64,000 nt of DNA. Source: a candidate division FCPU426 bacterium. Its GTDB lineage: Bacteria > Oederibacteriota > Muellerivitia > Muellerivitales > Muellerivitaceae. How positions within the stretch are numbered: position 1 is the stretch's first letter; each line of letters begins with the position of its first letter. Below are positions 6,900 to 64,000 of the stretch, in pieces. The position numbers were made by a program, and so were the translations under genes. The stretch lies in the NCBI GenBank assembly GCA_963796105.1, contig CAWCKJ010000003.1, positions 112,567-176,566 on the forward strand. The letters run 5' to 3'. The notes beneath the pieces were generated by a model. It saw only the letters and a list, made by a program, of their open reading frames with translations. It searched no databases and was not told the origin of the DNA.

Positions 6900-7057
6900 A
6901 TTGGACGCTTGTTAAAAGCCGGCCGGCGCGGGTAACCAGGATGCTTGGTTCGCGAGTGAAAGATCGTTTCGGAGGCTCGTTCTCCGCGCGTCGGCTTGGG
7001 CCGGATGGTTTGACGATGACGGTAGCAGAAATTCCCGCGAAAAGTACCCACCGTTCC

Positions 7058-13175: not shown

Positions 13176-13178
13176 GAC

Positions 13179-17668: not shown

Positions 17669-17673
17669 CGAAA

Positions 17674-40664: not shown

Positions 40665-40679
40665 TAGAAAGAGGAAAAA

Positions 40680-42899
40680 TTGCCCCCGCGAAAAAAGAAA
40701 AACCAAATTGAAACAAAAAATACCAAATCTTCAAGTTCCGACTTGGAGCGTTTAGTCAACCTATCCCACCGCGACCCTCACTCCATTCTTGGCATTCATC
40801 CCGTTCCAGAAGGGGTTTTCATCCGGGTTTTCCGGCCTGAGGCCAAGTCCATTTCCGTTTTGCTGGGTAAGAGGGAAATCCAGCTCCAACCCATTGAACC
40901 CAAAGGATTGTTTGAGACGCTGTTGCCCGGGGAAAAAGAATTTCCTCCCTATCGTGTCAGGGCGGAATATCTTGGCGGAAATGTTTTCGAATATTGGGAC
41001 CCCTACGCTTTCTGGCCCACCTTGGGTGAATTGGATTTGTTCCTTTTGGGCGAGGGAAATCACGAGAGACTTTATGAAAAAATGGGAGCGCACCCCACAC
41101 GTTGGCAGGATGTCGAGGGGGTATCTTTCGCGGTCTGGGCGCCCGGCGGAAAAAGCGTCAGTGTGGTTGGGGATTTCAACGGCTGGGACGGTCGTCTGCA
41201 TATGATGCGGTGTCTGGGAGTGTCGGGCATTTGGGAAATTTTCATACCAGAACTTCCGGCAGGCACCATGTACAAATACGAGATCCGCACGCCTTCGGGC
41301 GACATCCGCATGAAAGCTGACCCTTACGCCTTCGCAACGGAAGTGCCGCCCAAGACGGCCTCGGTCGTGCACAAGACTGCCTTCCATTTTAATGATACTG
41401 TATGGATGGAGAAACGGAAGAAGAGCGACGCCCTCCGGGAACCTATGTCCATCTACGAGTTACACCCGGAATCCTGGAGGAAAGTTCCCGAGGAGGGCAA
41501 CCGTTCCCTGACCTATCGAGAAATGGCTTTCCAGTTGGCCGATTACATGAAGGAAATGGGTTTTACCCACGTTCAACTCATGCCGGTTATGGAGCATCCA
41601 TTTGGGGGGTCCTGGGGTTACCAGGTGACCTCCTATTTCGCGCCCACCTCACGGTTTGGAGATCCGGACGATTTCAAGTTTCTGGTGGACCACCTGCACC
41701 AAAACGGCATAGGGGTTCTCTTGGACTGGGTTCCAGCTCATTTCCCCAAGGACGATTTCGCCTTGGGCCGATTTGATGGCACCGCCCTTTATGAGCACAT
41801 TGACCCCCGCCAGGGGGAGCATCCGGATTGGGGTACTTATGTCTTCAATTTTGGGCGAAACGAGGTCCGCAACTTTTTGCTGTCCAGCGCTCTTTATTGG
41901 CTTTCCGAGTACCACGTGGACGGCTTGAGACTGGACGCCGTGGCCTCTATGCTTTACCTGGATTACAGCCGCCAGGATGGGGAGTGGGTCGCCAACAAGT
42001 ATGGAGGAAACGAAAATCTGGAAGCCATCTCCTTCCTCAAGCGCCTCAACGAATTGGCCCATGCCCAATTTCCGGGGGTGCTGATGATCGCCGAGGAATC
42101 CACGGCCTTTACGGGTGTGAGCAAGCCGACCTATACGGGCGGTCTGGGATTCGGATTCAAGTGGAACATGGGATGGATGCATGACACCCTTTTCTATTTC
42201 AGCCGGGACCCCATTTACCGCAGGTATAACCACAACAATCTCACCTTCGGTTTCCTCTACGCTTGGAGCGAGAATTTCATTCTGCCTCTGTCTCATGACG
42301 AAGTTGTTCATGGAAAATGTTCCCTCATCGACAAGATGCCGGGGGACCGATGGCAAAAATTTTCGGGTCTCAGGTCGCTTTTCGGTTATATGTGGGCGCA
42401 CCCAGGCAAGAAGCTCCTATTCATGGGGGGCGAGTTCGCCCAGTTCTATGAGTGGAACCATGAACAAAGCCTGGATTGGCATTTGACCCAATGGGCGGAC
42501 CATTGGCGTATGCAGGACTATATGAAGGATTTGAACCGCATCTACAAGGAAAACCCGGCCCTCTGGGAGGCGGATACGGACCCCTCCGGATTCCAATGGG
42601 TGGATGTCCACAACGCCAACGAAAATGTAGTGGCATTTTTAAGGAAATCCCCTAAAACCGGGAGACAGTTACTCTGCATCGGAAATTTCTCGCCGGTTCT
42701 CCGTCATGGTTACCGAGTGGGCTTGCCGAAGTGGGGGTATTACAAGGAAATCCTGAATTCTGATTCCGCTCACTATGGCGGAAGCAATTTCGGCAATGGG
42801 GGAGGGGTGCAATCCGAGGATATTTCCTACCAAGGGATGCCCCATTCCGCCATTGTGTTCCTCCCCCCCTTGTCGATCTTGTGGTTTGAGGCGCCCTGA
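40680..42899 (+). CDS. glgB: 1,4-alpha-glucan branching enzyme (GH13)
   Basis: N-terminal [10 protein letters not shown]. Catalytic-domain blocks [35 protein letters not shown] and MIAEEST. 739 aa. Confidence 0.9.
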
Positions 42900-43645: not shown

Positions 43646-44755
43646 ATGAAACACAATTCCTCCATGAATTCTGAAAAACAAAAAAATACAAGCAATAAAG
43701 GAACCGCGGAAAAAACGATCCTTCAACGGGAATTGGACATGTTCCACAGGATCATCGAGGGCATGAGGGAGGAGCTTTCCTACGTGGATCTCCTGAAACT
43801 CACAGTCACCTGCGTCTGCAAGGGATTGGGCTATGACCGGGCCGGAATTTTCTTGGTGGAACCAGGTGGGAAGAGTATCGCGAGGGCCATCGGAGTTGAC
43901 GCCAAAGGCCGGTTCGAGGTCGGGCATGACCATGTGGATCCTCTTTTAAATAAAAAGGGTTTCAGCACTTTTTCGGATTTGGTTTACGGCTATAAAAAGT
44001 ATTTCTATACCGCCAACCTGCTCAAGCTTTATCCCGATGCCAAGGGTGTCGAGAAAGGCGTGACCTGCAACGCGAATGTTCCGATTTCGATGGGAAAGAA
44101 ACGAATCATAGGTGTTCTGGCCGTGGATAACCTATTCACCCAACGTCAACTGACCCTCAAGGATATCGGCTCCCTCATGAATTTCGCGACCCAGGCGGGG
44201 ATGGCCATTGAGACTATCCGACTTCATGAGCAGGTTCGCGAGCTTTCGGTTACCGACGGTTTGACAAGGATTCACAATCGGAGGTATTTCGAGAGGTTCC
44301 TGGAAGATGAGGCCGCGAGAAGCAAGCGGTATAACCGCGCCTTCAGTCTTCTTTACCTGGATGTGGACCATTTCAAAAAAATCAACGACCATTACGGCCA
44401 TCCAGCCGGCGATGAAGTGCTAAAATTCATCGCATTATTTTTGCGCGCTGACCTTCGAACCATTGATGTGGTAGCCAGATTAGGAGGGGACGAATTCGGC
44501 ATCATTCTTCCCGAAATACATCCGGAGGGGGCCATGACGGTAGCCCAGCGGCTTCATCGGAAGATTGCAGAAGTCCACCTGCCAGTGGAAGCGATGGTGA
44601 AAGACCGGAAAAAGATCACACTCAGTATTGGATTAGCCACTTTTCCGGAGAATGCCTCTAGCGCCGAGGAATTGGTCAAGATGGCGGATAAGAGCCTCTA
44701 CAAAGCCAAGACCTCCGGCCGAAATCGTGTTGGACCTTTTATTAGGAAATCCTGA
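43646..44755 (+). CDS. GAF-domain diguanylate cyclase (GGDEF)
   Basis: N-terminal GAF-like sensor. C-terminal GGDEF domain with RYNRAFSLLYLDVDHFKKINDHYGH..GD and the active-site GGDEF (LGGDEFGIIL). Confidence 0.85.
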   Translation: MKHNSSMNSEKQKNTSNKGTAEKTILQRELDMFHRIIEGMREELSYVDLLKLTVTCVCKGLGYDRAGIFLVEPGGKSIARAIGVDAKGRFEVGHDHVDPLLNKKGFSTFSDLVYGYKKYFYTANLLKLYPDAKGVEKGVTCNANVPISMGKKRIIGVLAVDNLFTQRQLTLKDIGSLMNFATQAGMAIETIRLHEQVRELSVTDGLTRIHNRRYFERFLEDEAARSKRYNRAFSLLYLDVDHFKKINDHYGHPAGDEVLKFIALFLRADLRTIDVVARLGGDEFGIILPEIHPEGAMTVAQRLHRKIAEVHLPVEAMVKDRKKITLSIGLATFPENASSAEELVKMADKSLYKAKTSGRNRVGPFIRKS

Positions 44756-51650: not shown

Positions 51651-52403
51651 ATGTTCTGGTCCGTGGACATCGGGAACAGCCGCGCCGTGTCCGGCTATAT
51701 GAGGGGCATTCATCCGGTCCGAAAAACCTTTGTCGAAACCAGCCGCCTTCGGACCCTTTCTGGAGCCCTCCGGTGGGCTAAAGGGCTTCAAAAAAAAGGG
51801 CCGGGAGAGGGCTTTATCATCGCGAGTGTGGTTCCGGCCGTTGATGGAATGGTCCGCATGGCCGTTGAAAAGGCATCGGGCCAAGCCCCGTTTTTCGTGA
51901 ATCCCCTTAGGAATCCCGGAATATCTATTCATTACCGGAAACCCAGGGAGGTTGGTGCCGATCGAATCGTCAACAGCATAGCCGCCAAGAAAATCTTCGG
52001 TGCGCCAGTGATTGTCGTGGATTACGGGACCGCTACGACTTTCGATGTCGTGGACGGCGGGGGAGCCTATCGGGGGGGCGTCATATGGCCAGGAATAGGC
52101 ATGTCATTGAAAGCTCTCCACCAGCAAACCGCGAAACTGCCCCTTGTGACCTTCGCCAAGACCCGAAGCGCGGTTGGGACGACAACTAAGGATGGAATCA
52201 GGTCCGGACTATATTTAGGGACTTTAGGAGCGACTCGGGAAATTTTATCCAGAATACGGAAACAACTCGGATCGACTGCTCCTGCAGTCGCCACAGGCGG
52301 TTTTTGCCGATTGTTCGAGGGAACCGGATTATATTCCAGGATTGAGCCGGATTTGACTTTGAAGGGTCTAGCCATGATTTGGAATGAAAGATTCGGGGTT
52401 TAG
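51651..52403 (+). CDS. coaX: type III pantothenate kinase
   Basis: MFWSVDIGNS (ASKHA fold N-terminus) and ..IVVDYGTATTFDVV..GG.I.PG... Sits in the conserved birA-coaX pair. Confidence 0.85.
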   Translation: MFWSVDIGNSRAVSGYMRGIHPVRKTFVETSRLRTLSGALRWAKGLQKKGPGEGFIIASVVPAVDGMVRMAVEKASGQAPFFVNPLRNPGISIHYRKPREVGADRIVNSIAAKKIFGAPVIVVDYGTATTFDVVDGGGAYRGGVIWPGIGMSLKALHQQTAKLPLVTFAKTRSAVGTTTKDGIRSGLYLGTLGATREILSRIRKQLGSTAPAVATGGFCRLFEGTGLYSRIEPDLTLKGLAMIWNERFGV

Positions 52404-52688
52404 AAGCCTGCATCCTTAATGAGAGAGAAGAACTTTAGGCATAAATTGTAAGCACTGAAAAAGTCTGCGATATACCGACTTTTTCAGAAATCATTGAAAA
52501 TAATCTCATGATTTTCTGTCCAACTTGGTTTGAAATCTGATAAAGATAACTGGGCGAGAAAATCCTGGGATCAAAACCTCTCTTGGAAGCTTTATTTTAG
52601 TTTTTCAGAGGTTTTAAGTTTATGTGTCGGCCGTCTAAAAAAAGAAAACTTAGGGGCATACAAGCCGTCCCCGAATCGAGCGTGATTC

Positions 52689-55049
52689 GTGCCAAGTATC
52701 GAGGAAGTCGCGGCGGAGGAAGAATTACGCCTGAGGGAGGAATCCCTCGAAAGACGGCGGAAATTTTCCATTTTCGCAGGAACGTTTTTATTGTTCGGCG
52801 GCTGGTTCTACTTCGCAAAAGGCTGGATGAACAGGGGAAGTTTTTTAATCCTAATTTCCTACCTTTTCTTGCTTCATGCGATGGGGCTAAAAAAATATTT
52901 CGAGAAATGGTCCCGTGGAAATTTGCTGTCCGCCGCTCCGGTTGCGGCTGGCCTGCTCGCACTCTATGAAACAACCCATATCTCACGTTTTTATTGGGGG
53001 AAAGACCCATCCTTTTGGCTCGCCGTCCACGCTGGCGCCGTGGGCGATCCCTTTTGGTCCCCTTTGCCGGTCCTTTTCGGCCAAGCCCTTTGTTTCCTGT
53101 TTCCGACCCGGACATTCACGCTTCTTCCCGTCGCGTCCGCCTTAGTTCTTTCTCTCGCCTCGATCATGGCCCTTGGGGAGTTATTCTGGCAATTGAAATC
53201 GCAAAGCATGATCAACAAGGTGATCGCAAGCCTCCTTTGCATGGCCGTCGGATTCAGCCGCCCATGGTGGGACGCGGGAACAATCGGATCTGGGATGGTC
53301 GCGTCCCTGGGGCTTGTTCTTTTCCTGACCCAAAGGAATCTTCTCAACACGGAGGAAAAACCATGGGACTGCCTTTGGATGATCCTGGGGTTACTTTTCA
53401 GCGTGCATCCCCTTTGGGGCTTGTTGGGTCTTTTCAACCACCTGATCCAGGTGGACCTTCAGGCGAAGGACTTTAAAGTCTCTTGGAGCCCCTTGGCCCT
53501 GGGACTCACTCCCTACCTTTGGGTGTATTTCCGCGCCGGAACCTTTTTCCCGTCCTGGGGCGGAAATCACCCGTTTTATTATTTCGTTAAGGAATGGCGG
53601 AGTCTTTGGGATTGGCACCGAGGCACGGATTGGGATCCCCTGAACGCGGCCGCGAGTTTCGGTGTAACCCTGGGCGTCTTATTCCTTTTTTTGGTCATTT
53701 TATGGATTTTAAACCTCCTGAAATGGAAAGTTGGCAACCCCAAAATGATCAGAGCCTCAGAGGTATGGATGTGTATTTTCGCCGCCATTTTGTCCTGGAT
53801 TTCCTCATCCTCCTCCTCGGCGCAAGCGGGGCCCACCGCCGTTTGGCTGCCAATGGGATTGGGATGCCTCCTGCTTTCATTCATCGAAAAAGGGATGGAG
53901 AGGAAACAAACGTCTTTTCTTTCCGGGACCCGCTTAGCCGCCGCGAGCGCTCTGATCCTGCTTTTATCCATCGGCCTAGCCTTTCTTCCCGGCCAGTATT
54001 TTTTTCGGTCGCAAATGACTTTTGCCGAGCAGCACGCGCTGAATCTCCTGAGGGCTTTGAATGAGAAATCCATCCTTGTTTTCCAGGATCCCTTTGAGGC
54101 GGCGGCCTGCCGGGAGACGCGCCTCATGGATCCTCTACAGACCAAGGCCGTTTTTTTGGATGAACGATACTTGGACCGGCGTTGGTACATGGCCCAATGC
54201 ATTAAAAGCCATCCGGAAGTGATTTTCTCCTCCATTCAAGGTTCCCCTGAGGAGGTCGTGAAAAACCTGGCGGAAAATAACCTTCCGGAATGGGACATCC
54301 AATGGTCCCGTTCCAGGATGCCGGATGGTTGGAAGGGCCCGGGAACTTTCCCCACAGTATTAACCCAGGAGTTCACCGGAACGGATCTTGGCACCCAACC
54401 CCCCGGGAATATCCAATTTCGCTATGACCTGACCTCGCTTCCGGACCTGGAAAACAGGTTTTCCGATCCCGCTAACCGGTACATTAGAAGATACTCGGAG
54501 GGTTTCAATGAGCTGGGCTTGGCAATGATGGTTTTGGGGCAGTACTCAGCCGCCATACGTTCCTTTGAAAGGTCGGCCCATTTGAACCCGGGCGACCCGG
54601 AACCCCGGAAATCCCTTTTCGGAATATTCGCCCAGCAAAACATCATGGAGGCTGCCCGCCTGGATTTCGAGAAAACCATCAAGGAGCATCCGGCCCGGAT
54701 CGAGGGTTTGATGCGCCAATTGGAACAAACGAAGAACAACCAGGATGAGGTTCAAACTGTCCTCTTGCTCGATCAAATGATCAAGCTGAACCAGGAACTA
54801 TCCGACGCGCAATTCCATTTGGCGATGATCTATGAAAAACAAGGCAACATATCCGAGTCGAAATCTCTCTTGGAATCCTCCGTGAAATTAAACCCACAAC
54901 GATTGGATGCCCAGTTGACTCTTGGACATTTAATGGCCAAGTTGGGGAACCGCATCAAGGCAGAGGAGGCTTTTAGGTCCGTTCTCGGCTTGGATCCACA
55001 GAATAAAGAGGCCCAAAAGGAACTTTGGAAACTCTTGAACCAACCGTAA
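52689..55049 (+). CDS. DUF2723-like polytopic membrane protein with C-terminal TPR repeats (paralog of 14478..16583)
   Basis: Multi-TM N-terminal half with ..LAVHAGAVGDPFWSPLP.., analogous to the DUF2723 HxxGYPLY region. C-terminal TPR repeats. The start is uncertain. Confidence 0.5.
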   Translation: MPSIEEVAAEEELRLREESLERRRKFSIFAGTFLLFGGWFYFAKGWMNRGSFLILISYLFLLHAMGLKKYFEKWSRGNLLSAAPVAAGLLALYETTHISRFYWGKDPSFWLAVHAGAVGDPFWSPLPVLFGQALCFLFPTRTFTLLPVASALVLSLASIMALGELFWQLKSQSMINKVIASLLCMAVGFSRPWWDAGTIGSGMVASLGLVLFLTQRNLLNTEEKPWDCLWMILGLLFSVHPLWGLLGLFNHLIQVDLQAKDFKVSWSPLALGLTPYLWVYFRAGTFFPSWGGNHPFYYFVKEWRSLWDWHRGTDWDPLNAAASFGVTLGVLFLFLVILWILNLLKWKVGNPKMIRASEVWMCIFAAILSWISSSSSSAQAGPTAVWLPMGLGCLLLSFIEKGMERKQTSFLSGTRLAAASALILLLSIGLAFLPGQYFFRSQMTFAEQHALNLLRALNEKSILVFQDPFEAAACRETRLMDPLQTKAVFLDERYLDRRWYMAQCIKSHPEVIFSSIQGSPEEVVKNLAENNLPEWDIQWSRSRMPDGWKGPGTFPTVLTQEFTGTDLGTQPPGNIQFRYDLTSLPDLENRFSDPANRYIRRYSEGFNELGLAMMVLGQYSAAIRSFERSAHLNPGDPEPRKSLFGIFAQQNIMEAARLDFEKTIKEHPARIEGLMRQLEQTKNNQDEVQTVLLLDQMIKLNQELSDAQFHLAMIYEKQGNISESKSLLESSVKLNPQRLDAQLTLGHLMAKLGNRIKAEEAFRSVLGLDPQNKEAQKELWKLLNQP

Positions 55050-55245
55050 CGCAAATTGAGTCCAAAGAACGCCCGAACAATGTACTTTTCCCCCCGCTTG
55101 AGTTGAACAGCCGCCTCGGCTGGTCATTGCCTTTTTCATGGATTTTTTACCGGGCCGGAAAAACGTTAAAATATTGGGCTTTTCCAATATGAGTATTGCT
55201 ATAATAGTTTCACTTAACGCTTGGTTGTTTTAAACGGGAGCTGGA

Positions 55246-57549
55246 ATGGATCTGCAAGAAATCCTTAATTCCATGGTGAATAAAAAGGCTTCAGACGTCC
55301 ATTTGAAGGCGGGCGCCCCCCCTCTTTTCCGCATTGACGGCGATTTAATCCCCCAAAGTGAAACCATTCTTTCCGCGCAGGAATTGGCGGAAGTCGCGTC
55401 TTATTTGATGGATGAGAAGCAGCAAAAACTGTTTTTCGAGGACCACCACGAGGTCGACCTGGCTTACGCCGTGGAGGGTTTGGCCCGTTTCAGGACGAAC
55501 GCCATGTGGCAGAGGGGTCTTCCGGAAATCATCATGCGGGTTATTCCCCAGATCGTCCCGCGGATTGAGGACATCAACATGCCGACCTCGGTGTTGAAGC
55601 AAATCGCCATGGAACCCCGAGGGTTGGTCCTGGTCACGGGAATAACGGGTTCAGGGAAATCAACCACCCTCGCGGCCCTCATCCACGAGATCAACGTGAA
55701 CCGCTCCGCCCATATCGTGACCGTTGAAGATCCCATCGAGTTTGTCCACCAGGACGCCAAATCCAGCATGACTCAAAGGGAGGTGGGACTAGACACTGAA
55801 AACTTTAAAACGGCCTTGAAATTCGTGTTGCGGCAGGACCCCGATGTCATACTTATCGGGGAAATGCGCGACGTGGAGACGGTCCAGGCCGCCATTACGG
55901 CCGCAGAAACCGGCCATTTGGTGTTTTCCACCCTGCATACTATGGATACCATTCAAACGATAGAGAGAATTTTGGACTTTTTCCCGCCCGATCAGCAAAA
56001 CCAAATGAGGATCCAGTTATCCAATACCTTGCGAGCCGTTATCTCTCAACGCTTGGTTTCTAAGGCCGACGGCGCCGGTGTCGTTCCAGCCTGTGAAATC
56101 ATGGTCGTGACACCCACCATCAAATCCCTTATCGCCGATGATAAAATCAGCTCGATTCGCGGTTATATCGCGGAGGGTCATAGCCAATATGGAATGCAGA
56201 CTTTCGACCAATCCTTGATCGAACTGGTTCGAAAGGGCTTCATTACCCGGGAAAGCGCCATGGAACAGGCCACGTCCCCCAGCGAAATTGATCTTGGGTT
56301 GAAGGGGATTTCATCCTCCAAGGCCTCCGCCCAGTCCTTGATTTCACAAATGGAGACTTCTCAACAAAAAGAGCGGGTTTCCGGCTGGCTAAAGCGGGCG
56401 CAGGATCTTTATGAAAGAAGGCGCAATGACGAGGCAAAAGCGGAGCTAAAACGCATTCTGCAGGAAATGCCGGAACATAAGGAGGCGAACGCGCTGATGG
56501 CCCGTTTGCGTGAAATGGAGGACAAAACCGACAAGAAAAAAGACGCCTCATCCTCGGTTAAAACCGCTCTTCAATTGTACCGGGAAGGCAAGTTCCAGGC
56601 CGCTATCCTGGAATTTCAAAAAGCCTTGGAAATAGACCCGGGAAACAAGCAGGCCGAAGCTTATATCCGCTCCATTCAAACCGAAATGGACAACCGCGTT
56701 CGCGCGAGGGAGTTTGTCCAGGCTGGGATGCAGAAACAACAGCAAAATGACATGGTGTCCGCCCTGAGCCAATTGGAACAAGCGCTCATTTTGGATCCTG
56801 ATAATGAGCAGGCGCAGGTGCTGCAAAAGGACATTAAAAACACTCTTCAAAAGGACCAAGCCAGGGAAAAAGCCAAGGAACAAAACCAAATCGCCATTGA
56901 TTTATACAAGGCGGGTGATTTACTGGGCGCTCTAGTCGCATGGAATAAGGCCTATGAGCTGAATTCCGAGCTGGAAGAAGTCTCGCGCTATTTGCAGCAG
57001 GGGATCGCCAAACTTCTGTCCTTCGGGGTGGAAGGGCTTGAGGGAAATCCGGAAACCCAGAACATCCTAGCGCTCTTTGAGCAGGGAGTTCGGAGTTACG
57101 TGCGAAGCGATTTCCAGACCGCGATTGAGTTTTTTAAAAAAGCCCTCGCCAAGGCCGACGGCAACGCCTATTTAAACGCCTACCTGCAAAAGTCCCTGCA
57201 GATGGAGGAACAGCAAGTCGAAGAATTGTTCCATGAGGGTTTAAAGGCCCAGGAGTCGGGCGACTTGGCCGCGGCGCTAAAAGAGTACAATAAGATCTTG
57301 AGGCTCTCGCCGGGGCACCCGGAAACCGTGAAACAACTCGGCGTCTTAAAAGCGACGATTCAGCAGAAAACCGAGGCTTTGTACACCGAGGGTAAAGTTT
57401 ATTTCGACCAGAATGACATGGATAAGGCCGTTCGTATTTGGGAAAAAATACTTTACCTCGATCCTTCCAATGAACGCGCTAAAAAGAAAATTGAAGAAGC
57501 AAAAATCAAAAAAAGCACCTTATCCGGTATCTTTTCAAAGATAAACTAG
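55246..57549 (+). CDS. pilT: type IV pilus retraction ATPase PilT fused to a C-terminal TPR-repeat domain
   Basis: Residues 1 to about 350 form a complete PilT: Walker A GITGSGKSTTLAAL, Asp box, Walker B DVILIGEMRD, His box TLHT, and PilT-specific AIRNLIRE-like region. These are followed by about 400 aa of TPR repeats. Confidence 0.8.
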   Translation: MDLQEILNSMVNKKASDVHLKAGAPPLFRIDGDLIPQSETILSAQELAEVASYLMDEKQQKLFFEDHHEVDLAYAVEGLARFRTNAMWQRGLPEIIMRVIPQIVPRIEDINMPTSVLKQIAMEPRGLVLVTGITGSGKSTTLAALIHEINVNRSAHIVTVEDPIEFVHQDAKSSMTQREVGLDTENFKTALKFVLRQDPDVILIGEMRDVETVQAAITAAETGHLVFSTLHTMDTIQTIERILDFFPPDQQNQMRIQLSNTLRAVISQRLVSKADGAGVVPACEIMVVTPTIKSLIADDKISSIRGYIAEGHSQYGMQTFDQSLIELVRKGFITRESAMEQATSPSEIDLGLKGISSSKASAQSLISQMETSQQKERVSGWLKRAQDLYERRRNDEAKAELKRILQEMPEHKEANALMARLREMEDKTDKKKDASSSVKTALQLYREGKFQAAILEFQKALEIDPGNKQAEAYIRSIQTEMDNRVRAREFVQAGMQKQQQNDMVSALSQLEQALILDPDNEQAQVLQKDIKNTLQKDQAREKAKEQNQIAIDLYKAGDLLGALVAWNKAYELNSELEEVSRYLQQGIAKLLSFGVEGLEGNPETQNILALFEQGVRSYVRSDFQTAIEFFKKALAKADGNAYLNAYLQKSLQMEEQQVEELFHEGLKAQESGDLAAALKEYNKILRLSPGHPETVKQLGVLKATIQQKTEALYTEGKVYFDQNDMDKAVRIWEKILYLDPSNERAKKKIEEAKIKKSTLSGIFSKIN

Positions 57550-57659
57550 ATTCCCTTTTTTGCTTGACGTTTTTGCCACAAACAGTTGTTTTCTTTTCAA
57601 GCGTCCATTAAGTTACTGGTGACGCGCAAGCTACAAGAGGGGAATTAAAAGGAATTAAA

Positions 57660-58058
57660 ATGAAAAAATTGATCATAGGCATCTTGATATTAATCGGCTT
57701 CTTTTTTATGGCCCTTAATACATCCATGCTCGCTGACCAGGCGTTGAAATGGGTGCAGGAAAATCCCAAGGATCCGCATGCTCCTAAAGTCCTATATGAA
57801 GCTGCCCGTTGGTGCGACATCATGGGCGACAATAAAAAAGCTTTGGAGGTTTATTGGGATCTTTACCAACAATATCCCGGCAGTTCCTCCCTCTGCGCCG
57901 CGTCTCTCTATTACAGCGCTCAAATCCAGGTGGATACGAGTGTTTCGAAAAAACTCGCGGATCCTTTTTTGAAGATTATATTAGACCAGTATTTTAGCGA
58001 GACTGAGTGGGTGGAAAAAGCCAGAAAGTTACAGGACGAGGTGAATTATGTTCGCTGA
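57660..58058 (+). CDS. small secreted protein with a single TPR-like repeat
   Basis: Signal peptide MKKLIIGILILIGFFFMALN. Helical TPR-like core. Confidence 0.4.
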   Translation: MKKLIIGILILIGFFFMALNTSMLADQALKWVQENPKDPHAPKVLYEAARWCDIMGDNKKALEVYWDLYQQYPGSSSLCAASLYYSAQIQVDTSVSKKLADPFLKIILDQYFSETEWVEKARKLQDEVNYVR

Positions 58059-59022
58059 AAAGAATAAATATATTGGTTTGGCCGGTTTGGTCTGCCTGAT
58101 AAGCATGGGTTTGGCTTCATCAGGGATTTGTAAAACCACCGAGGGGGAGGATGAAAATGACCACCTATCCCCGCCCCCTACCCCTATATCCGCTGATCGA
58201 TACCGAAAAATGAATCAGGCGGATCAAGAAAAATCCGTTAAAACGCTGAAAACCGCCAAGAAGGAAAAATCGGAAGTTTCATCCGCAACCTCCCCCGCCG
58301 CCCAGGTAAGGGCGGGGGATAATATAAGCGTCTATTATTTCACGAAAGCTGGTTTTGTAATAACACAGCCATCCCAATTACCTTCATTGGGTAAAGTGGT
58401 TGGGGACCTTAGCGAGACGAACGCCTCCGGCCCGGGCGTTTTAAGTTACAGCCAAGCGAAAAAACCTTATATTGAATATTCCTCCAAGGCTGAGTTAAAT
58501 ATAGACGATTTACTGGTTGTTTATTCGATTTCTCCGGAAAATATTAATGAACCCGAATCGAATTTTTCCGGTTTTCTGGTTGAAAACAGGGCTATCGTAA
58601 AGGTGATTTCTGTCCAAAAGAAGTATTGCCAAGTGGAGATCGTTAAATCCTTCGTTGCTTTTCACGCGGGAGACCGTGTCCGGCCATACAGCGATGAGCT
58701 TCAAAGATGGACAAAGGCTCAAACTAAAAAACCACTTCCCTCAAATGAAATCCATTGTTATGTATGCGGTGGAGAGGTTCAAAAAACAGCTTATTCCCAG
58801 TCGGATTTCATCATCTTGACCGCCGGCACGAACAAGGGTGTGGTTGAGGGACAAGTATTTCATCTAAAACAATTAGTTAAGAACGTGGAATTGAGGGAGG
58901 ATCTTCATGCCTTCCGGGGTTCGGCGCGCGTATTTTTCGCGGGATCCAATTACTCCATGGCCCAAATTCTTTCCAGCAACGAATCCATCCAAAAAGGGTT
59001 TGAGGCGGTTTACAATCCCTGA
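58048..59022 (+). CDS. hypothetical exported protein
   Basis: N-terminal hydrophobic segment IGLAGLVCLISMGLASSG. No family assignable. Confidence 0.4.
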   Translation: MFAEKNKYIGLAGLVCLISMGLASSGICKTTEGEDENDHLSPPPTPISADRYRKMNQADQEKSVKTLKTAKKEKSEVSSATSPAAQVRAGDNISVYYFTKAGFVITQPSQLPSLGKVVGDLSETNASGPGVLSYSQAKKPYIEYSSKAELNIDDLLVVYSISPENINEPESNFSGFLVENRAIVKVISVQKKYCQVEIVKSFVAFHAGDRVRPYSDELQRWTKAQTKKPLPSNEIHCYVCGGEVQKTAYSQSDFIILTAGTNKGVVEGQVFHLKQLVKNVELREDLHAFRGSARVFFAGSNYSMAQILSSNESIQKGFEAVYNP

Positions 59023-59045
59023 ATCGGAGCCGGATTAAGGTTTAA

Positions 59046-59903
59046 ATGGATTCCTTGAAAAACAAAACAGTTGAAGAAGACCCCTTTTTTTTAAAGATTC
59101 TTGAACATGTATTGGCCGAAAAAGGATTCGACGGCACGCATTACAAAATCAATTATATCAAGAGAAGGGTGGCAGTCCGAATGCGGGCATCCGGAACCCG
59201 CGATTACTTGGAATATTATCAGGCGTTAAAAAAAAACCGGGATGAAGTATCACTGCTGTTTGACCGTTTTACCATTCATGTGACGGATTTTTTCAGGGAT
59301 GCCGAAGTTTACAATTCCATGAAGTTAAAAGTACTTCCTGAAATTTTTCGGCAACCGGGATCCAGCCTTAAGATTTGGTGCGCCGGATGCAGCACGGGGC
59401 AAGAGCCTTATTCCATCGCCATCACTTTGAGGGAAAACAGCCCCAAGTACGCGGAGAAGAATATTAAAATCATCGCCACCGATATTGACGATGCCAGCAT
59501 TCGTTTTGCCGAGCGGGGGACCTATCCCATTGCTTCACTGAAAAAACTCTCGAGCCAACAAATGAGCAAGTGGTTTTTGAACGAGGGGGAAAAAGCGCGC
59601 ATATCCCAGGAATTGAGGGACTCGGTAAGGTTCAAAACGCATGATTTACTTGGACGTTGGGATTCGGATTTTTCGGATTTTAACCTTATATTATGTAGGA
59701 ATCTCCTTATTTACCTTTCGGCGGTCCGCCAGCAAAAACTTTATCAAGGGTTTCACAAAGCATTGCGTCCGGATGGGTATTTGATTCTTGGTTTGACGGA
59801 AACATTAATGGGCGGGGCTCGTGAATTATTCCGCTGCGTTGACGTGAAGAACCGAATCTACAAAGTTTGCGGTTCAAAAACGCCTTCTGACAGAGGGGCT
59901 TGA
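59046..59903 (+). CDS. cheR: CheR-type protein-glutamate O-methyltransferase
   Basis: Collinear with E. coli CheR: N-terminal helical domain; ..FFRD...F..L..... followed by IWCAGCSTGQEPYSIAI (AdoMet motif I); ..ATDID...L..A..G.Y; ..D.I.CRN.LIY.. Confidence 0.85.
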   Translation: MDSLKNKTVEEDPFFLKILEHVLAEKGFDGTHYKINYIKRRVAVRMRASGTRDYLEYYQALKKNRDEVSLLFDRFTIHVTDFFRDAEVYNSMKLKVLPEIFRQPGSSLKIWCAGCSTGQEPYSIAITLRENSPKYAEKNIKIIATDIDDASIRFAERGTYPIASLKKLSSQQMSKWFLNEGEKARISQELRDSVRFKTHDLLGRWDSDFSDFNLILCRNLLIYLSAVRQQKLYQGFHKALRPDGYLILGLTETLMGGARELFRCVDVKNRIYKVCGSKTPSDRGA

Positions 59904-59909
59904 GGGAAA

Positions 59910-61091
59910 ATGGATAAGGCACAGGATCATATTAATCTCGGAACCGCTTTCACTCTTTCTAAACGGTATGACGACGCGATTGTGGAGTTTAAAAAAGCGC
60001 TGGTCTTGAGCCCATCGGATGGTGAAATCCTTTTTCAATTGGGGGGATTATGCACCAATATCGGGAATTACGAGGAAGCTGAGAATTATTACCACGACGC
60101 GCTATCCATCAACCCGATGAATTTAAACGCGCATTGCAAATTGGGTTTGTTATTGGAAGTCCAGGGCAAGTACCAGGAATCCATACAAGAATTTCAAAAA
60201 GCCACTGAATTGAATCCGACTGACGCGGGCCTTTACAACAACCTGGGAAATGTCTATTCGAAAATGGGCAGGTATCAGGAAGCCATTGATCAGTTTAAAA
60301 AATACACTGGCATCAATCCGAGCAACGCGGAAATTTTCTTCAAAATGGGTTTTTCATTTGAACAGTTGGGCAGGCTTGATGAGGCCATCAACTCCTATGA
60401 ACGAGCTCTAGTCCTAAATCCCCGACACGCGGCTGTTTACTCCATCCTGGGAAACGCTTACGCGAAAAAAGGGGATTATCAGGAGGCCATATCGCTTTAT
60501 CAACAGGCCCTTCGATTAAATCCTCAAGAGCCGGAAGTCCATTTAAAATTGGGGGTGGCCTTCATGTCGCTCGGCCAATACGACAAGGCCTTGTCTGTTT
60601 TGGAGGAGGCGCGTCAAAAAAACCCGCAGAATGCCGAGGTTTATTTGAAGTTTGGGATGATTTACGCGGGCCGCGGCCAGCATGAGGAGGCCATTCAAAT
60701 GTACCGAAAGGTCATGGAGATTAATCCCCATGACGCAAGCGTCCATAATGTCTTGGGTTACATTTATGACCGGCAGGGAGACGCGGAAAAAGCCATGGAG
60801 GAATACCGCGCCGCCAAACTCATCAACCCCAATGACATATTAATCTTGGATAATCTCGGGAACTTGAATTATAAACAAGGCCATTTTGATGAGGCGGCCC
60901 AGGATTTCGAGAGCTTGCTTCAATTGAATCCGCTGCATAGTGATGCCCACGCGAAGCTGGGAAATGTTTATTTAAAGAAAGGCGAAAAGAACAAGGCCGT
61001 CACCCACTGGGAAAAAGCCTTGGAACTTGATCCGTCCAATGAGATCCTCAAGAACAATTTAAGAATTGTCAAAGGAAGTCCCACGGCATGA
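59910..61091 (+). CDS. TPR-repeat protein (about 11 repeats)
   Basis: Regular 34-aa repeats with the W-LG-Y / A-F-A-P signature across the whole 393 aa. Confidence 0.8.
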   Translation: MDKAQDHINLGTAFTLSKRYDDAIVEFKKALVLSPSDGEILFQLGGLCTNIGNYEEAENYYHDALSINPMNLNAHCKLGLLLEVQGKYQESIQEFQKATELNPTDAGLYNNLGNVYSKMGRYQEAIDQFKKYTGINPSNAEIFFKMGFSFEQLGRLDEAINSYERALVLNPRHAAVYSILGNAYAKKGDYQEAISLYQQALRLNPQEPEVHLKLGVAFMSLGQYDKALSVLEEARQKNPQNAEVYLKFGMIYAGRGQHEEAIQMYRKVMEINPHDASVHNVLGYIYDRQGDAEKAMEEYRAAKLINPNDILILDNLGNLNYKQGHFDEAAQDFESLLQLNPLHSDAHAKLGNVYLKKGEKNKAVTHWEKALELDPSNEILKNNLRIVKGSPTA

Positions 61092-61726
61092 TGAAGACCC
61101 AGGAAAAATCCCTCGGTGAATTATTGCGTCAGGCTGGGAAAATCACCTCCCGCCAAATTCAAGTGGCGTTATCGGAACAAAAAATAACCCATGAACCCAT
61201 TGGGAAAATTCTTGTTTCACTTGGTTTTGTGGAGGAGAGGGATATTTTGCAGGTCATGGAAGGCATGGTGGTATTGACGTTCCGCATGGATAAAGAGCTG
61301 TTCGGGGTGGAAACTTTCCGCGCGCGAGAGGTCTTGAAATACACTGTATTAAAACCATTTGAAAATAAAGTTGGAAATTGGGAAGGGCATCTTGCCCTTC
61401 GCGGTGAGGAAATCCCAGTTTTGTCATTCAGGAAATTCCTTGAGGTTCCCGCGACGGGTCCCGTGGAACGGAGCTGGTTCATTATCCTTGAGAAAAAGGG
61501 GAGGCCTTTCGCCCTTTGGGTGGACGAGGTCAGGGAAGTAACCCGCTTTAAAATCGATCAAATCGAGCCGGTTCCGCTTTATCTTTTGGGAAAAAAAACA
61601 GAATTGTATTATTGTTTAGGTAAAATAAAAGATGACCTTTACTCGATCATCAATCCGGATAATTTAGTGGAAGATGTTCCCGAAAAGCCGCCGTTAATTG
61701 GAAAAAACCATGCCAGCTCAACCTGA
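61088..61726 (+). CDS. CheW-like coupling protein with N-terminal MshEN/T2SSE_N-type putative c-di-GMP-binding motif
   Basis: The N-terminal 60 aa carry tandem motifs LGELLRQAGKITSRQIQVALSEQ and IGKILVSLGFVEERDILQVM, matching the MshEN consensus RLGxxLxxxGxIxxxxLxxALxxQ. The rest is a CheW-like domain (VLTFRMDKELFGVETFRAREVL..). Confidence 0.6.
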   Translation: MMKTQEKSLGELLRQAGKITSRQIQVALSEQKITHEPIGKILVSLGFVEERDILQVMEGMVVLTFRMDKELFGVETFRAREVLKYTVLKPFENKVGNWEGHLALRGEEIPVLSFRKFLEVPATGPVERSWFIILEKKGRPFALWVDEVREVTRFKIDQIEPVPLYLLGKKTELYYCLGKIKDDLYSIINPDNLVEDVPEKPPLIGKNHASST

Positions 61727-63920
61727 AACAAAAACCATCCGTGAATTAGCCCACGGAAGCGATCAAGGCGACGCGTCCACCCACAATAATTTGGGGGTTT
61801 TTTATTATTCCAAGGGCATGTACGCGGAAGCTATCAAGGAATTTAAAACTGCGCTTGAGATCGATCCCGAGAACACCCAAGCATTGGAGAATCTGAAGGC
61901 CGTCAACCGGCACACGGGCCTTTACGACCGTTCGATTGAAGCCTACAAAAAATCGACCCAAATGTTTCCATCGGATTCCGAGGCTAGTTATAACCTCGCC
62001 AATTCCTACCGGTATACGGGTCAATATGAAAAAGCAATCGTTGAATACCAGAAAACCATCGCCTTAAATCCAGAACATCCTTTCGCTAGAAACTACCTTG
62101 GTATCACTTACAAGTGCACGGGCCAGTTGGAGGAGGCCATTAAGGAATTCAAGAAAGCCATCGATGACAACCCCTATTACGCTGATCTTCATAACAATTT
62201 AGGCGAGGTTTATTACAAAAAAGCCATGTTGAATGAGGCTCTCGTTGAGTTTAAAAAGGCCATTTCTCTTAACCCTGACTATGCCATCGCGCACTACAAC
62301 TTGAGCTTCGTTTATGGCGATAAGAACATGCTGGAAGAGGCCGAGAGGGAGTTCAAGAAAGCGGTGGATTTGAACCCTAATTTCGGGCAGGGAGCGCAGG
62401 CGCTTTTGTCGATTGAGCGCGCGAAAAGCATGGAGGAGAAAGTCGCCGAGAAAATCGCTTCCGCCCCCCCCGCTCCCTCCGTGGAAACATACCTTAGTTT
62501 AGCGTCCGCTTACAGCGGGAAAGGACTCCTGGATGAGGCCATCAGGGAATATAAAAGAGCCATTGAGGCCATGCCGAATGAGGAAAAATCCTACCGGGCT
62601 TTGGGTGAAATCTACCTACAGAAGGGCCTGATCGAGGACGCGTTAATGTCGTTCCAGAAGGCTATCGATATTTCACCCACCGACATCGAGAACTATATAC
62701 AGCGGGGGATAGCCCTTCGGGAATTGAACCGTTGCGACGAATCGGTGAGCGAGTTTAAAAAAGCCATAGAATTAACGCAGAATTCCAGCAAGGCTCATTT
62801 TGAGATGGGAGTCACCTACTTCAAAATGGGTGAAACTGAAAATGCCACGAGGGAAATTAGAAAAGCCCTGGAAATAGACCCTGAGAACGCTGAGGCGCAT
62901 TATTATCTTGGCGTTTACTATTACAAAGTCAATCTTTACGACGAGGCCATCCGGGAGATCACCCAGGCCGTGGAGTTGGACGTCTCCATCGCCTCAAGCG
63001 CTGAGGCCCTTATTTATTTGGGATTGGCCCTGGCTGACAAAGGCCGTTTTGAGGAAGCCATCGCAGAGTATAAGAAGGCGATGGAATTGGACCCTAAAAA
63101 CCCGATTATCCATAATAGTTTGGGAGTGGCCTATAAAAACGCCGGAATGATCGATGATGCCATCCAGCATTATCAGAAGGCCATTTCCATCAACCCTCAA
63201 TACGCCAAGGCCTATAATAATTTGGGAGTTGTTTATTTTAAAATGAGCCAATATGAGAAAGCGATCGAAACATTCAAAAAAGCTGTCGAAATAGAGCCGG
63301 AATATAAAACGGCTCAAAATAACCTTTCAGTGGCCATGAAAAAGCGGATCGTTCTTTCCGAGGCATCGGAGGTTTTGATTAAGCAAATTATGGCTGACCC
63401 GGAAAATTATGCCTTGCATCAAAACCTCGGCATGCTTTACAAAAATACGGGGCAACACTCGGAAGCCGTACGCGAGTTCCAGGAAACCATACGCTTGAAT
63501 CCGAAAAACCGGGAAGCTTTAACCCAACTCGGCGACACTCATCTCCTGCTGGGGCATTTGGATGAAGCTGTCAAGGTGCTGGCTAAGGCAATTTCCTGCG
63601 ACCCTACCCATCCGGACGCGCATATGCAATTGGGCAAGGTTTATATCCAACGCCAATGGTGGGATGAGGCTTTGGTTGAGTTCAAAAAGAGCCTGGAAGG
63701 AAATAAGAATTCCCCGGAGGTATATTATTATCTCGGCCAAGTCTACCGGTTCAAAGGCTGGTGGGACGACGCCATCCAAAAAATGCAAATGTACCTGGAT
63801 TCAGCCAATACCGAGGAGGACAAGGTCATACAGGCCATCGATATCATCCAGCAAATCCAAGTTTGGCGAAAAGAACTCCAAGTTTCCCCGAGCGGGGACA
63901 AGGCGAAATATATAAAATAG
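61698..63920 (+). CDS. large TPR-repeat protein (about 20 repeats)
   Basis: 740 aa of back-to-back TPR repeats. Overlaps the upstream gene. Confidence 0.8.
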   Translation: MEKTMPAQPETKTIRELAHGSDQGDASTHNNLGVFYYSKGMYAEAIKEFKTALEIDPENTQALENLKAVNRHTGLYDRSIEAYKKSTQMFPSDSEASYNLANSYRYTGQYEKAIVEYQKTIALNPEHPFARNYLGITYKCTGQLEEAIKEFKKAIDDNPYYADLHNNLGEVYYKKAMLNEALVEFKKAISLNPDYAIAHYNLSFVYGDKNMLEEAEREFKKAVDLNPNFGQGAQALLSIERAKSMEEKVAEKIASAPPAPSVETYLSLASAYSGKGLLDEAIREYKRAIEAMPNEEKSYRALGEIYLQKGLIEDALMSFQKAIDISPTDIENYIQRGIALRELNRCDESVSEFKKAIELTQNSSKAHFEMGVTYFKMGETENATREIRKALEIDPENAEAHYYLGVYYYKVNLYDEAIREITQAVELDVSIASSAEALIYLGLALADKGRFEEAIAEYKKAMELDPKNPIIHNSLGVAYKNAGMIDDAIQHYQKAISINPQYAKAYNNLGVVYFKMSQYEKAIETFKKAVEIEPEYKTAQNNLSVAMKKRIVLSEASEVLIKQIMADPENYALHQNLGMLYKNTGQHSEAVREFQETIRLNPKNREALTQLGDTHLLLGHLDEAVKVLAKAISCDPTHPDAHMQLGKVYIQRQWWDEALVEFKKSLEGNKNSPEVYYYLGQVYRFKGWWDDAIQKMQMYLDSANTEEDKVIQAIDIIQQIQVWRKELQVSPSGDKAKYIK

Positions 63921-63927
63921 GGGCACA

Positions 63928-64000
63928 ATGAAACTACTTCTTTGCATCATTCCTCCCAAAAAGATCGAGCAAGTCAAAAAAGCATTGTGGGAAGCGGGAG
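63928..64000 (+). CDS. P-II family nitrogen regulatory protein (5' fragment, runs off window)
   Basis: MKLLLCIIPPKKIEQVKKALWEAG aligns with the GlnB/GlnK N-terminus ([24 protein letters not shown]). Confidence 0.45.
   Translation, partial: MKLLLCIIPPKKIEQVKKALWEAG

Follow-up and report, generated by a model that had tools for sequence, protein, structure and literature searches.

A probable Thermotoga/Bacillus-like chemosensory locus with a candidate c-di-GMP-sensing CheW in candidate division FCPU426

Gene content and extent of the locus

The DNA analyzed here (hereafter the window) is a 64,000-nt stretch from a candidate division FCPU426 bacterium, in which the interval studied (positions 55246–63920) carries a cluster of chemotaxis- and pilus-related genes. 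Based on the list of open reading frames (ORFs) and on profile searches, the interval has seven ORFs, all on the plus strand (Table 1). Their products are a PilT-family protein fused to tetratricopeptide repeats (PilT-TPR), two small proteins (s132 and u324), the methyltransferase homolog CheR, two TPR proteins (TPR393 and TPR740), and a CheW protein with an N-terminal MshEN-type module (MshEN-CheW). A preliminary description of the same DNA had counted eight co-oriented genes; the shared orientation stands, but the count does not. Its domain calls (PilT-TPR, CheR, the TPR proteins, and the MshEN-type/CheW protein) were all upheld by profile hidden Markov model (HMM) searches. From s132 to the P-II family gene, neighboring genes overlap or sit at most 23 bp apart; the stop codon of TPR393 overlaps the start of MshEN-CheW, and the start of TPR740 overlaps the end of MshEN-CheW. 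Hydrophobic N-termini are present only in s132 and u324, in agreement with their earlier reading as two small exported proteins, and the other five proteins look cytoplasmic.

Table 1. Coordinates of the genes and other features at the locus (positions in the window).
Feature	Position	Strand	Remarks
Promoter-like extended -10 element	55197..55205	+	Sequence TGCTATAAT; conserved across genomes
PilT-TPR	55246..57549	+	767-aa fusion; first gene of the locus
s132	57660..58058	+	132 aa; N-terminal signal/anchor segment; YbgF/BamD-like TPR region
u324	58048..59022	+	324 aa; N-terminal signal/anchor segment; no Pfam or NCBIfam match
CheR	59046..59903	+	PF01739, PF03705
TPR393	59910..61091	+	11 uninterrupted 34-residue TPRs
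MshEN-CheW	61088..61726	+	212 aa; MshEN-type residues 8–60 (nt 61109–61267), CheW residues 62–196 (nt 61271–61675)
TPR740	61698..63920	+	740 aa; about 19–20 TPRs
P-II family gene, 5' end (24 codons)	63928..64000	+	Cut by the window edge

Only 80 bp separate the TPR740 stop codon from the window end. Positions 63928–63999 translate to MKLLLCIIPPKKIEQVKKALWEAG, which corresponds to the first 24 residues of a P-II protein and is 92% identical to the P-II of the closest relative (locus L016). No gene for a methyl-accepting chemotaxis protein (MCP), CheA, CheB, or CheY was detected by tblastn in the 64-kb window. The preliminary description had reported the same absence and was literally correct, but as biology the absence is an edge effect and uninformative, because the window cuts the locus before the che genes. 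Judged by sequence comparison, the interval is most likely the 5' half of one co-oriented chemosensory locus of about 17 genes that resembles those of Thermotoga and Bacillus.

Downstream half of the locus in related genomes

A pattern scan of one genome per species recovered 24 loci with close relatives of MshEN-CheW, nearly all of them in FCPU426 metagenome-assembled genomes (MAGs). In L016, based on Pfam annotation, the ortholog of TPR740 is followed by genes for P-II, a CheY-like receiver, CheC, CheD, a canonical CheW (171 aa; 108 bits), a second CheY, CheB, CheA (with Hpt, P2, dimerization, ATPase, and P5 domains) and a second CheC/CheX-like protein. Among the 24 genome loci, tblastn searches found the same downstream order in every locus that reaches far enough. 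In further metagenome loci, the last gene of the operon encodes a 360-aa GGDEF-domain protein and is followed by those for DprA, topoisomerase I (TopA), and housekeeping functions. CheA, CheY, CheB, CheR, and CheW are thereby found together, as a complete Che pathway, in relatives with identical upstream synteny. The preliminary description had taken CheR to be a stand-alone (orphan) enzyme, which is contradicted by the CheY/CheC/CheD/CheW/CheY/CheB/CheA/CheC set that relatives carry right after the position at which the window ends. It had also anticipated that a complete che operon elsewhere, holding the true partners, would reduce the cluster to a coincidental neighborhood; such an operon was found in the relatives, but it is adjacent and co-oriented rather than coincidental.

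With all NCBIfam equivalog scores of the che genes below cutoff, the class of the pathway is named from gene content and best family matches; on these grounds, it resembles the Thermotoga/Bacillus (F1-like) kind rather than the Pil-Chp kind, with Thermotogales families as the best NCBIfam matches of CheC and CheD and haloarchaeal ones as those of CheA and CheY. No MCP gene was found in the window or in the FCPU426 loci, and two loci of other lineages (L025 and L053) have one inside the operon. FCPU426 has been reported among the flagellated lineages, and FCPU426 MAGs have been reported to carry chemoreceptor genes.

The presence of a P-II (GlnB-like) gene within a che operon is unusual. In L016 this gene (12840–13178) matches PF00543 with 85 bits, and a P-II gene lies between the large TPR gene and the first CheY gene in every lineage with the MshEN-CheW core (L025, L026, L028, and L030 included). 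The ATP-binding C-terminal motifs of the protein are canonical (RTGRIGDGKIF and RVRTGERGE), and the T-loop is diverged.

The terminal GGDEF protein (e.g., L040 10853–11935 and 19 other FCPU426 loci) has a degenerate catalytic motif that reads E/D-K-x-K-Y. In each of the 20 FCPU426 loci that include the motif, an RxxD inhibitory site (I-site) in the form of RRVD or RKVD precedes it by exactly five residues, a hallmark of I-site receptors. The protein is therefore likely a c-di-GMP receptor rather than a cyclase. Its N-terminal domain, about 200 residues long, matches no known family. A second GGDEF protein (369 aa; PF00990 165 bits) is encoded in the window at 43646–44755, ending 10.5 kb before the cluster starts; it has no close relationship to the GGDEF protein at the end of the operon (33% identity over the domain).

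The downstream half varies in a few places. In deep-branching relatives, the last CheC gene is followed by one for a 712-aa actin-fold protein similar to FtsA, PilM, and MreB (L028 19274–20621, L052 2122–4260, and L020 20137–20622), with a weak ThiS-like match in its C-terminal part. A lineage-specific insertion is present between CheB and CheA in L056 (5598–7771), which encodes a 620-aa NHL-repeat protein and a 106-aa ORF. The gap between CheB and CheA in L013 (about 16870–19250) is of similar size.

Conservation and distribution across lineages

The proposal in the preliminary description depended on the cluster being conserved as a unit in related genomes, and this is what the comparison revealed. 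The gene order is identical in every FCPU426 locus long enough for comparison, with PilT-TPR covered in 15 loci and the other genes in 18–21. Because this order is kept in all of these loci and also in distant lineages, the arrangement is far beyond chance. The core of CheR, TPR, MshEN-CheW, TPR, P-II, and che genes recurs in at least four lineages besides FCPU426, with GC contents of 38–70%. Its invariant part comprises CheR, a TPR protein of about 390 aa, MshEN-CheW, a TPR protein of about 730 aa, P-II, CheY, CheC, CheD, and the remaining che genes. A profile search against 1.84 billion representative proteins placed full-length MshEN-CheW proteins (about 200–221 aa) in six clusters at 50% identity among the best 150 matches, and the other matches among these 150 are proteins with multiple CheW domains.

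The genes in front of the core differ among lineages. L028/29 (GC 54%) has NadC, BirA, CoaX, and a TPR gene, then PilT-TPR (67% identical to that of the window), s133, and u262, followed by the full core and che set and by the FtsA/PilM-like protein. L030/31 (GC 67%) starts with PilT-TPR (40% identical, tail included), s156, and u410 and continues with CheR, TPR, CheW, TPR, P-II, CheY, CheC, and CheD until the contig ends. L025 (GC 38%) has no PilT-TPR; its front consists of s131 (homologous to s132; E 4e-8), u398, and an HD-GYP protein gene that abuts CheR, and its core has an MCP gene between CheD and CheW. L053/57 (GC 70%) is cut within the first TPR gene and has the same order from there onward, with the same in-operon MCP. 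L026/27 (GC 42%) also has no PilT-TPR, and its core is flanked by two GAF-GGDEF genes and one REC-GAF-HD-GYP gene; there is no CheA gene nearby, and none follows CheB. Finally, a 1.5-kb contig carrying the homolog P0157 has CheW followed directly by P-II and a receiver.

PilT-TPR is thus at the front in three lineages (FCPU426, L028, and L030), and together with the two exported proteins it forms a frequent, not universal, front end. The linkage between the module and PilT-TPR that was noticed at the outset is genuine in the sense that it has been kept in these three lineages with proteins that are only 32–67% identical. However, the preliminary description had gone further and made the control of pilus retraction the defining function. 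Two lineages retain the core without PilT-TPR, and therefore pilus-retraction control is not the defining function of the core module. Genes for c-di-GMP turnover or c-di-GMP receptors accompany the core in three lineages (FCPU426, L025, and L026).

The MshEN-CheW protein

The MshEN-type motif in the CheW-like protein, which was first noticed by eye in the sequence, is corroborated by HMM scores, by matches to c-di-GMP-bound MshE and PilF structures, and by a predicted four-helix fold. Residues 9–58 match the MshE-related c-di-GMP motif NF053729 (model positions 2–51 of 53) with 57.7 bits (cutoff 38), and the protein matches PF01584 (CheW) with 76.4 bits (cutoff 23.5). Following the definition of the 24-residue MshEN motif (PMC5013675), motif 1 spans residues 8–31 (SLGELLRQAGKITSRQIQVALSEQ) and motif 2 spans residues 37–60 (PIGKILVSLGFVEERDILQVMEGM), with a five-residue spacer (KITHE) between them. 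In a phmmer search against the PDB, residues 5–58 matched Thermus PilF (2.3e-13) and Vibrio cholerae MshE (5htl; 1e-5). The AlphaFold2 model (mean predicted local distance difference test score [pLDDT] 83.8) has four helices (9–15, 21–34, 38–44, and 50–58) followed by a CheW fold. In Foldseek comparisons, the N-terminus superimposes on MshE 5htl_B (1.7 Å over 56 columns) and PilF 8pdk_B (1.9 Å over 53 columns), and the CheW part on Thermoanaerobacter tengcongensis CheW 2qdl (TMt 0.85; root-mean-square deviation 2.8 Å) and Escherichia coli CheW in 8c5v (TMt 0.84).

Most contact positions of MshEN domains are retained. These are L9, G10, L13, G17, I19, I24, L28, and Q31 in motif 1 and I38, G39, L42, V43, G46, F47, V48, I53, and M57 in motif 2; two of the hydrophobic ('h') positions of motif 1 are occupied by R14 and K18. 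In an alignment of 24 family members, 27 of the 59 N-terminal positions are invariant, compared with 27 of 153 in the remainder of the protein, which makes the N-terminal module its most constrained part. MshEN-CheW as a whole is also much better conserved than the canonical CheW of the operon (66% versus 44%). Based on these sequence features, MshEN-CheW is a probable c-di-GMP-sensing CheW.

CheR and the two TPR proteins

CheR matches PF01739 with 178 bits (cutoff 27) and the N-terminal domain PF03705 (CheR_N) with 37 bits (cutoff 27); its score against the E. coli-type equivalog NF007902 is 127 bits, which is below the cutoff of 435. A CheR gene is found at the equivalent position in every lineage examined, with a median identity of 53% in the FCPU426 loci. 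The domain matches and position identify this protein as the predicted protein-glutamate O-methyltransferase of the adjacent che pathway. CheR is not fused to TPRs: it stops at 59903, TPR393 is a separate ORF from 59910, and the same separation is seen in all lineages, with the TPR393 start located 6 bp past the CheR stop in every lineage.

TPR393 has exactly 11 contiguous repeats (residues 5–378), which is the number given in the preliminary description, and no hydrophobic segment. Its median identity is 75% in 21 FCPU426 loci, and counterparts of 383–392 aa are present at the matching position in L025, L026, L028, and L030, with an edge-cut one in L053. TPR740 matches TPR_11 with 394 bits in 14 stretches and likewise lacks a hydrophobic segment. 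A custom repeat HMM detected 19 repeats, so that the 20 repeats counted earlier are better given as about 19–20. The median identity of TPR740 is 76% in 20 FCPU426 loci, and counterparts that are 42–55% identical occupy the same position in L025, L026, L028, and L030. The two TPR proteins are among the most conserved proteins of the locus (medians 75–85%), together with PilT-TPR, P-II, the first CheY, and the last CheC; in comparison, the medians of CheR, CheD, CheA, and CheB are 53–60%. This constraint on repeat proteins argues for many interaction surfaces, although the genome has an unusually large number of TPR proteins.

Possible homology of the TPR proteins to MamA, PilW, Tgl, or SgmX was considered and rejected, as the high NCBIfam scores are generic TPR matches summed over repeats. 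TPR-rich proteins are also encoded elsewhere in the window, at 877–2994, 6896–10066, 14478–16583, 24525–25220, and 52689–55049. Among these, at least the protein at 14478–16583 has a multi-span N-terminus of the TMEM260-like O-mannosyltransferase type and a TPR tail.

PilT-TPR, s132, and u324

PilT-TPR consists of a PilT-family hexameric ATPase domain (residues 1 to about 350) and a TPR-rich tail of about 400 residues. Residues 3–347 match TIGR01420 over model positions 2–343 of 343 with 457.8 bits (cutoff 319.1), and the protein matches PF00437 with 169 bits and, over residues 3–352, Thermus PilT (5fl3) with 367 bits. The Walker A (GITGSGKST), Asp box (VEDPIEF), Walker B (DVILIGEMRD), and His box (HLVFSTLHT) motifs are intact and aligned to those of 5fl3. 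At the position of the PilT-specific AIRNLIRE helix, the protein reads PTIKSLIADDK, which is only partly conserved. By these comparisons, the domain is a close homolog of genuine retraction ATPases, and retraction itself is a predicted activity.

The 767-aa fusion has a median identity of 78% in 15 FCPU426 loci, reaching 91% in L016. Among the matches listed in a homolog search with the tail, only FCPU426 fragments were found, and the results were dominated by generic TPR candidates. In a Logan assembly of the same organism (L001 1957–4104), PilT-TPR is called as two ORFs (a 236-aa T2SSE protein and a 462-aa TPR protein) that are 98.4% identical to the window over residues 1–698. This split is an assembly or frameshift difference, and the 767-aa fusion is kept in 15 other genomes.

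The hydrophobic segment of s132 covers residues 1–19, and the protein has weak matches to TPR_14 and to tol-pal YbgF. Homologs of s132 occupy the equivalent position in the FCPU426 loci, L028, and L025, and L030 has a similar protein of 156 aa. The hydrophobic segment of u324 covers residues 8–26. The u324 of the window has no Pfam or NCBIfam match; its homolog P0255 matches PF16538 (FlgT_C) with 28.3 bits (cutoff 27), and the L025 counterpart does so with 17 bits, a weak beta-barrel signal. The position of u324 is conserved, with a median identity of 41%. A structure prediction from a four-sequence alignment had a pLDDT of 43 and was unusable.

Upstream boundary and putative promoter

Two conserved blocks are located in the 150 bp before PilT-TPR. 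One is the extended -10 element (TGnTATAAT; Table 1), and the other lies upstream of it at about 55167–55183 (TAAAATATTGGGCTTTT; conserved stretch TAAAATAnTGGGTTTT). Among the window, L016, L004, and L002, TAAAATAnTGGGTTTT and TGnTATAAT vary little or not at all, and the rest of the intergenic region diverges. The two blocks likely mark the start of the operon, with an extended -10 promoter and a possible regulator-binding or UP site. A consensus promoter scan did not list the extended -10 element, which has no -35 hexamer at standard spacing, and the promoter and terminator scan gave counts equal to the shuffled expectation. No terminator was found in the gap between PilT-TPR and s132 or in that between g786 (see below) and PilT-TPR. 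An Rfam search of 52000–64000 gave no match at E <= 1, hence no known c-di-GMP riboswitch in this region. The gap between PilT-TPR and s132 is only 16–17 bp in L015, L017, and L019. Because the conserved blocks precede PilT-TPR and such short gaps occur in some genomes, PilT-TPR is most likely the first gene of the transcription unit.

The genes upstream of the cluster encode ValRS, NadC, BirA, CoaX, and g786 (52689–55049). The last combines a membrane-spanning N-terminus with several spans, for which no family match was obtained, and a TPR tail. As a candidate member of the system, g786 was rejected: it is 47% conserved, the promoter-like block sits after it, a TMEM260-like glycosyltransferase-type gene separates it from PilT-TPR in most FCPU426 genomes, and a PMT_2 protein takes its place in L016.

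Two other features of the window lie farther upstream. A DDE transposase gene (DDE_Tnp_1_4) at 27455–28885, located in a stretch of lower GC content (about 48%, compared with 55–60% at the window start), is probably part of an insertion sequence. A glycogen-related gene pair at 38211–42899 encodes a GH57/DUF3536 protein and the branching enzyme GlgB.

Comparison with known systems

The locus shares CheA, CheW, CheY, CheB, CheR, CheC, and CheD with Thermotoga/Bacillus-type (F1-like) operons, including the phosphatase/deamidase pair of CheC and CheD and a CheA composed of Hpt, P2, dimerization, ATPase, and P5 domains. Compared with these operons, it has five to seven additional conserved genes at the front (PilT-TPR, the two exported proteins, the two TPR proteins, and the second CheW), a P-II gene in the middle, and a degenerate GGDEF gene at the end, and the FCPU426 cluster lacks an MCP.

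The Pil-Chp (Tfp) class of pathways steers the extension and retraction of type IV pili, with a multi-Hpt ChpA, the receptor PilJ, and PilG, PilH, PilI, and PilK, and has no CheC or CheD. Like these pathways, the locus genetically links a Che-type pathway to a PilT-family pilus motor ATPase. However, it lacks a PilJ-type receptor, a multi-Hpt ChpA, and the PilG/PilH/PilI/PilK arrangement, its PilT carries a C-terminal TPR extension of about 400 residues, and other pilus genes are not nearby. The pathway does not appear to belong to the Pil-Chp class because its CheA has a single Hpt domain and P2, and because CheD and two CheC-like genes are present.

Known links between c-di-GMP and chemotaxis include YcgR, which acts at the motor, the PilZ protein MapZ, which inhibits CheR1, and receptors that contain PilZ domains. 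In these systems, as would be the case here, the level of the second messenger tunes chemoreceptor signaling or adaptation. The difference is that the sensor would be an MshEN module in CheW instead of a PilZ domain and that it would act at receptor-kinase coupling, rather than on CheR or at the motor. Degenerate GGDEF proteins that serve as c-di-GMP receptors through an RxxD I-site are known from PelD and PopA. The terminal GGDEF protein of the locus is similar to these two in that the GG(D/E)EF motif is replaced and RxxD is kept; it differs in its N-terminus of about 200 residues without a family match and is encoded outside the window, and its binding of c-di-GMP is likewise predicted.

Compared with the MshEN receptors V. 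cholerae MshE, Thermus PilF, and PilB, MshEN-CheW has the same two 24-residue motifs, five-residue spacer, four-helix fold, and hydrophobic contacts, but it has Ser and Pro at position 1 of the motifs and has lost the last Gln, and its binding of c-di-GMP is a prediction. The supplement of Wang et al. (2016) (PMC5013675) lists MshEN domains within CheA and fused to CheX, so that the prediction of a c-di-GMP input into chemotaxis proteins is not new. That catalog does not include a stand-alone MshEN-CheW adaptor, and our literature searches found no paper that joins MshEN or T2SSE_N to CheW in a fusion and none that describes this cluster. The pairing of CheR with TPRs in a chemosensory cluster is also seen in the CheR-TPR fusions FrzF of Myxococcus and WspC of Pseudomonas (PMC3447774), which by analogy are the nearest precedent. 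In the locus, these are separate proteins, and the TPR partner has 11 repeats rather than a short fused domain, often with two (PMC3447774). Moreover, CheR-TPR fusions typify pathways with multidomain response regulators (alternative cellular function type), whereas the locus has single-domain CheYs together with CheC and CheD.

Evaluation of alternative explanations

The interpretation that we consider rather probable, based on gene content and sequence features, is a che locus with a c-di-GMP-sensing CheW, TPR scaffolds, P-II input, and a probable flagellar output. Several observations weigh against it. The downstream half was read in relatives, and the source genome was read to position 64000. 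Neither the FCPU426 cluster nor the roughly 10 kb flanking it on each side contains an MCP gene or a structural gene for a pilus or flagellum, and no pil gene besides PilT-TPR was found in the window or the loci, so that the pathway may drive a flagellum, the PilT motor, or both. L025 and L026 lack PilT-TPR. With TPR proteins so frequent in this genome, TPR neighbors by themselves carry little weight. In MshEN-CheW, the stacking Arg at position 1 is replaced in both motifs (Ser8 and Pro37), motif 2 ends in a hydrophobic residue instead of Gln in all lineages (M60 in the window protein), and there is precedent for degenerate MshEN domains without c-di-GMP binding, e.g., that of XpsE (PMC5013675). 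Ser8 is invariant in the 24 aligned family members, and the residue is Ser, Ala, or Thr in distant lineages, always after Lys or Arg. When the polar positions (Arg1 and Gln24 of each motif) are relaxed, P37 and Q31 are allowed, and S8 and M60 fall outside; Ser is not in the relaxed set for position 1, [RKPN] (PMC5013675). These deviations are what would be expected if the module had retained an MshEN/T2SSE_N fold without c-di-GMP binding and served in protein-protein docking, e.g., to the TPR proteins, to whose two genes the MshEN-CheW gene is translationally coupled. We regard such a docking role as possible, although less probable than c-di-GMP sensing. The NF053729 score exceeds the curated cutoff, the hydrophobic contacts, both Gly residues, and Gln31 are kept, and c-di-GMP turnover or receptor genes lie beside the core in three lineages. 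In addition, the deviations are not decisive because changes of Arg9 and Gln32 reduce affinity by less than 5-fold, compared with more than 10-fold for changes at conserved hydrophobic positions (PMC5013675), and because the PDB lists c-di-GMP-bound PilF K167L, Q190E, and Q218E variants, whose positions appear equivalent to the deviating ones. The motif deviations thus weaken the case for c-di-GMP binding, which is still plausible.

A different objection is that the locus may be an ordinary flagellar chemotaxis operon, in which PilT-TPR, s132, and u324 are neighbors by descent with no tie to Che and the TPR proteins are generic. The Thermotoga/Bacillus-type gene content and best family matches, the reported flagellation of FCPU426, the weak FlgT_C-like signal in u324 homologs, the lack of PilT-TPR in L025 and L026, and the abundance of TPR proteins in the genome are all compatible with this explanation. 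We nonetheless find it unlikely, given that PilT-TPR, s132, and u324 are directly upstream of CheR even in the divergent L030 (PilT-TPR 40% and CheW 32% identical; GC 67% versus 45–52%), that only 16–17 bp lie between PilT-TPR and s132 in several genomes, and that the promoter-like block precedes PilT-TPR rather than following it. Furthermore, the flanks outside the unit vary (a glycosyltransferase-like gene upstream is present or absent), and few proteins of the locus are as well conserved as TPR393 and TPR740. The preliminary description had instead envisaged a self-contained complex without CheA, in which PilT-TPR, an orphan CheR, MshEN-CheW, and the TPR proteins control pilus retraction on their own. 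Seven genes conserved together and a 64-kb window without CheA, CheB, CheY, and MCP would fit this idea, but it is very improbable in view of the window end shortly past TPR740, with the next gene already starting at 63928, of relatives that run straight into the che set, with CheA wherever the locus reaches (except in L026), and of cores without PilT-TPR in L025 and L026. The novelty of a CheA-less orphan module is a product of the window end; what remains is a complete che operon with an undescribed conserved accessory layer. It is about as improbable that the large TPR proteins replace chemoreceptors in FCPU426 as scaffold and methylation substrate of CheR, CheB, and CheD. This would account for an FCPU426 locus that has these three enzymes and no MCP and for extremely conserved TPR proteins sited between CheR and CheW. 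However, L025 and L053 have the same TPR proteins plus an in-operon MCP, chemoreceptor genes are reported in FCPU426 MAGs, and no likeness to methylation sites has been shown in the TPR sequences.

Proposed mechanism and biological implications

For the che locus with a c-di-GMP-sensing CheW, a working mechanism can be proposed, the steps of which are given here in order of falling confidence. CheR, with CheB and CheD, would be an ordinary receptor adaptation enzyme, and the receptors of FCPU426 would be encoded elsewhere; this is the step in which we are most confident. MshEN-CheW would act as a second coupling protein, whose four-helix module would bind c-di-GMP and thereby alter either the coupling between receptors and CheA or the competition of MshEN-CheW with the canonical CheW. 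In both cases, the level of the second messenger would tune kinase output. TPR393 and TPR740, which are translationally coupled to CheR and MshEN-CheW, may scaffold the sub-complex, P-II may add a metabolic input of the ATP/ADP/2-oxoglutarate type, and the degenerate GGDEF protein may be a second c-di-GMP receptor. Phosphorylated CheY (CheY-P) probably acts on the flagellar motor. This output is favored by the Thermotoga/Bacillus type of the che genes and by reports of flagellar genes in the phylum. In the least certain step, the co-expressed PilT-TPR may be recruited through its TPR tail, coupling pilus retraction to the same signals.

A broader proposal is that the core unit is an unrecognised input and scaffold layer for chemoreceptor arrays, that it makes kinase coupling depend on c-di-GMP, sensed by the CheW fusion and the degenerate GGDEF protein, and on the metabolic state sensed through P-II, and that it physically recruits PilT-TPR through TPR-TPR contacts. 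We regard this as speculative and rather unlikely on present evidence. If true, a single Thermotoga/Bacillus-type Che pathway would steer pilus retraction besides or instead of flagellar rotation in several uncultured phyla.

Whether bacteria move or settle is decided mainly by two systems, c-di-GMP signaling and chemotaxis. With a c-di-GMP sensor within CheW, the second messenger would intervene where receptors are coupled to the kinase in the array, a case for which neither the literature searches nor the catalog of MshEN fusions gave an example. The TPR proteins, P-II, and PilT-TPR are clonable candidates for new array-associated components, being soluble proteins of 200–770 aa with many orthologs. 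The locus would provide the first functional handle on the control of motility in FCPU426 and in related candidate phyla without cultured members.

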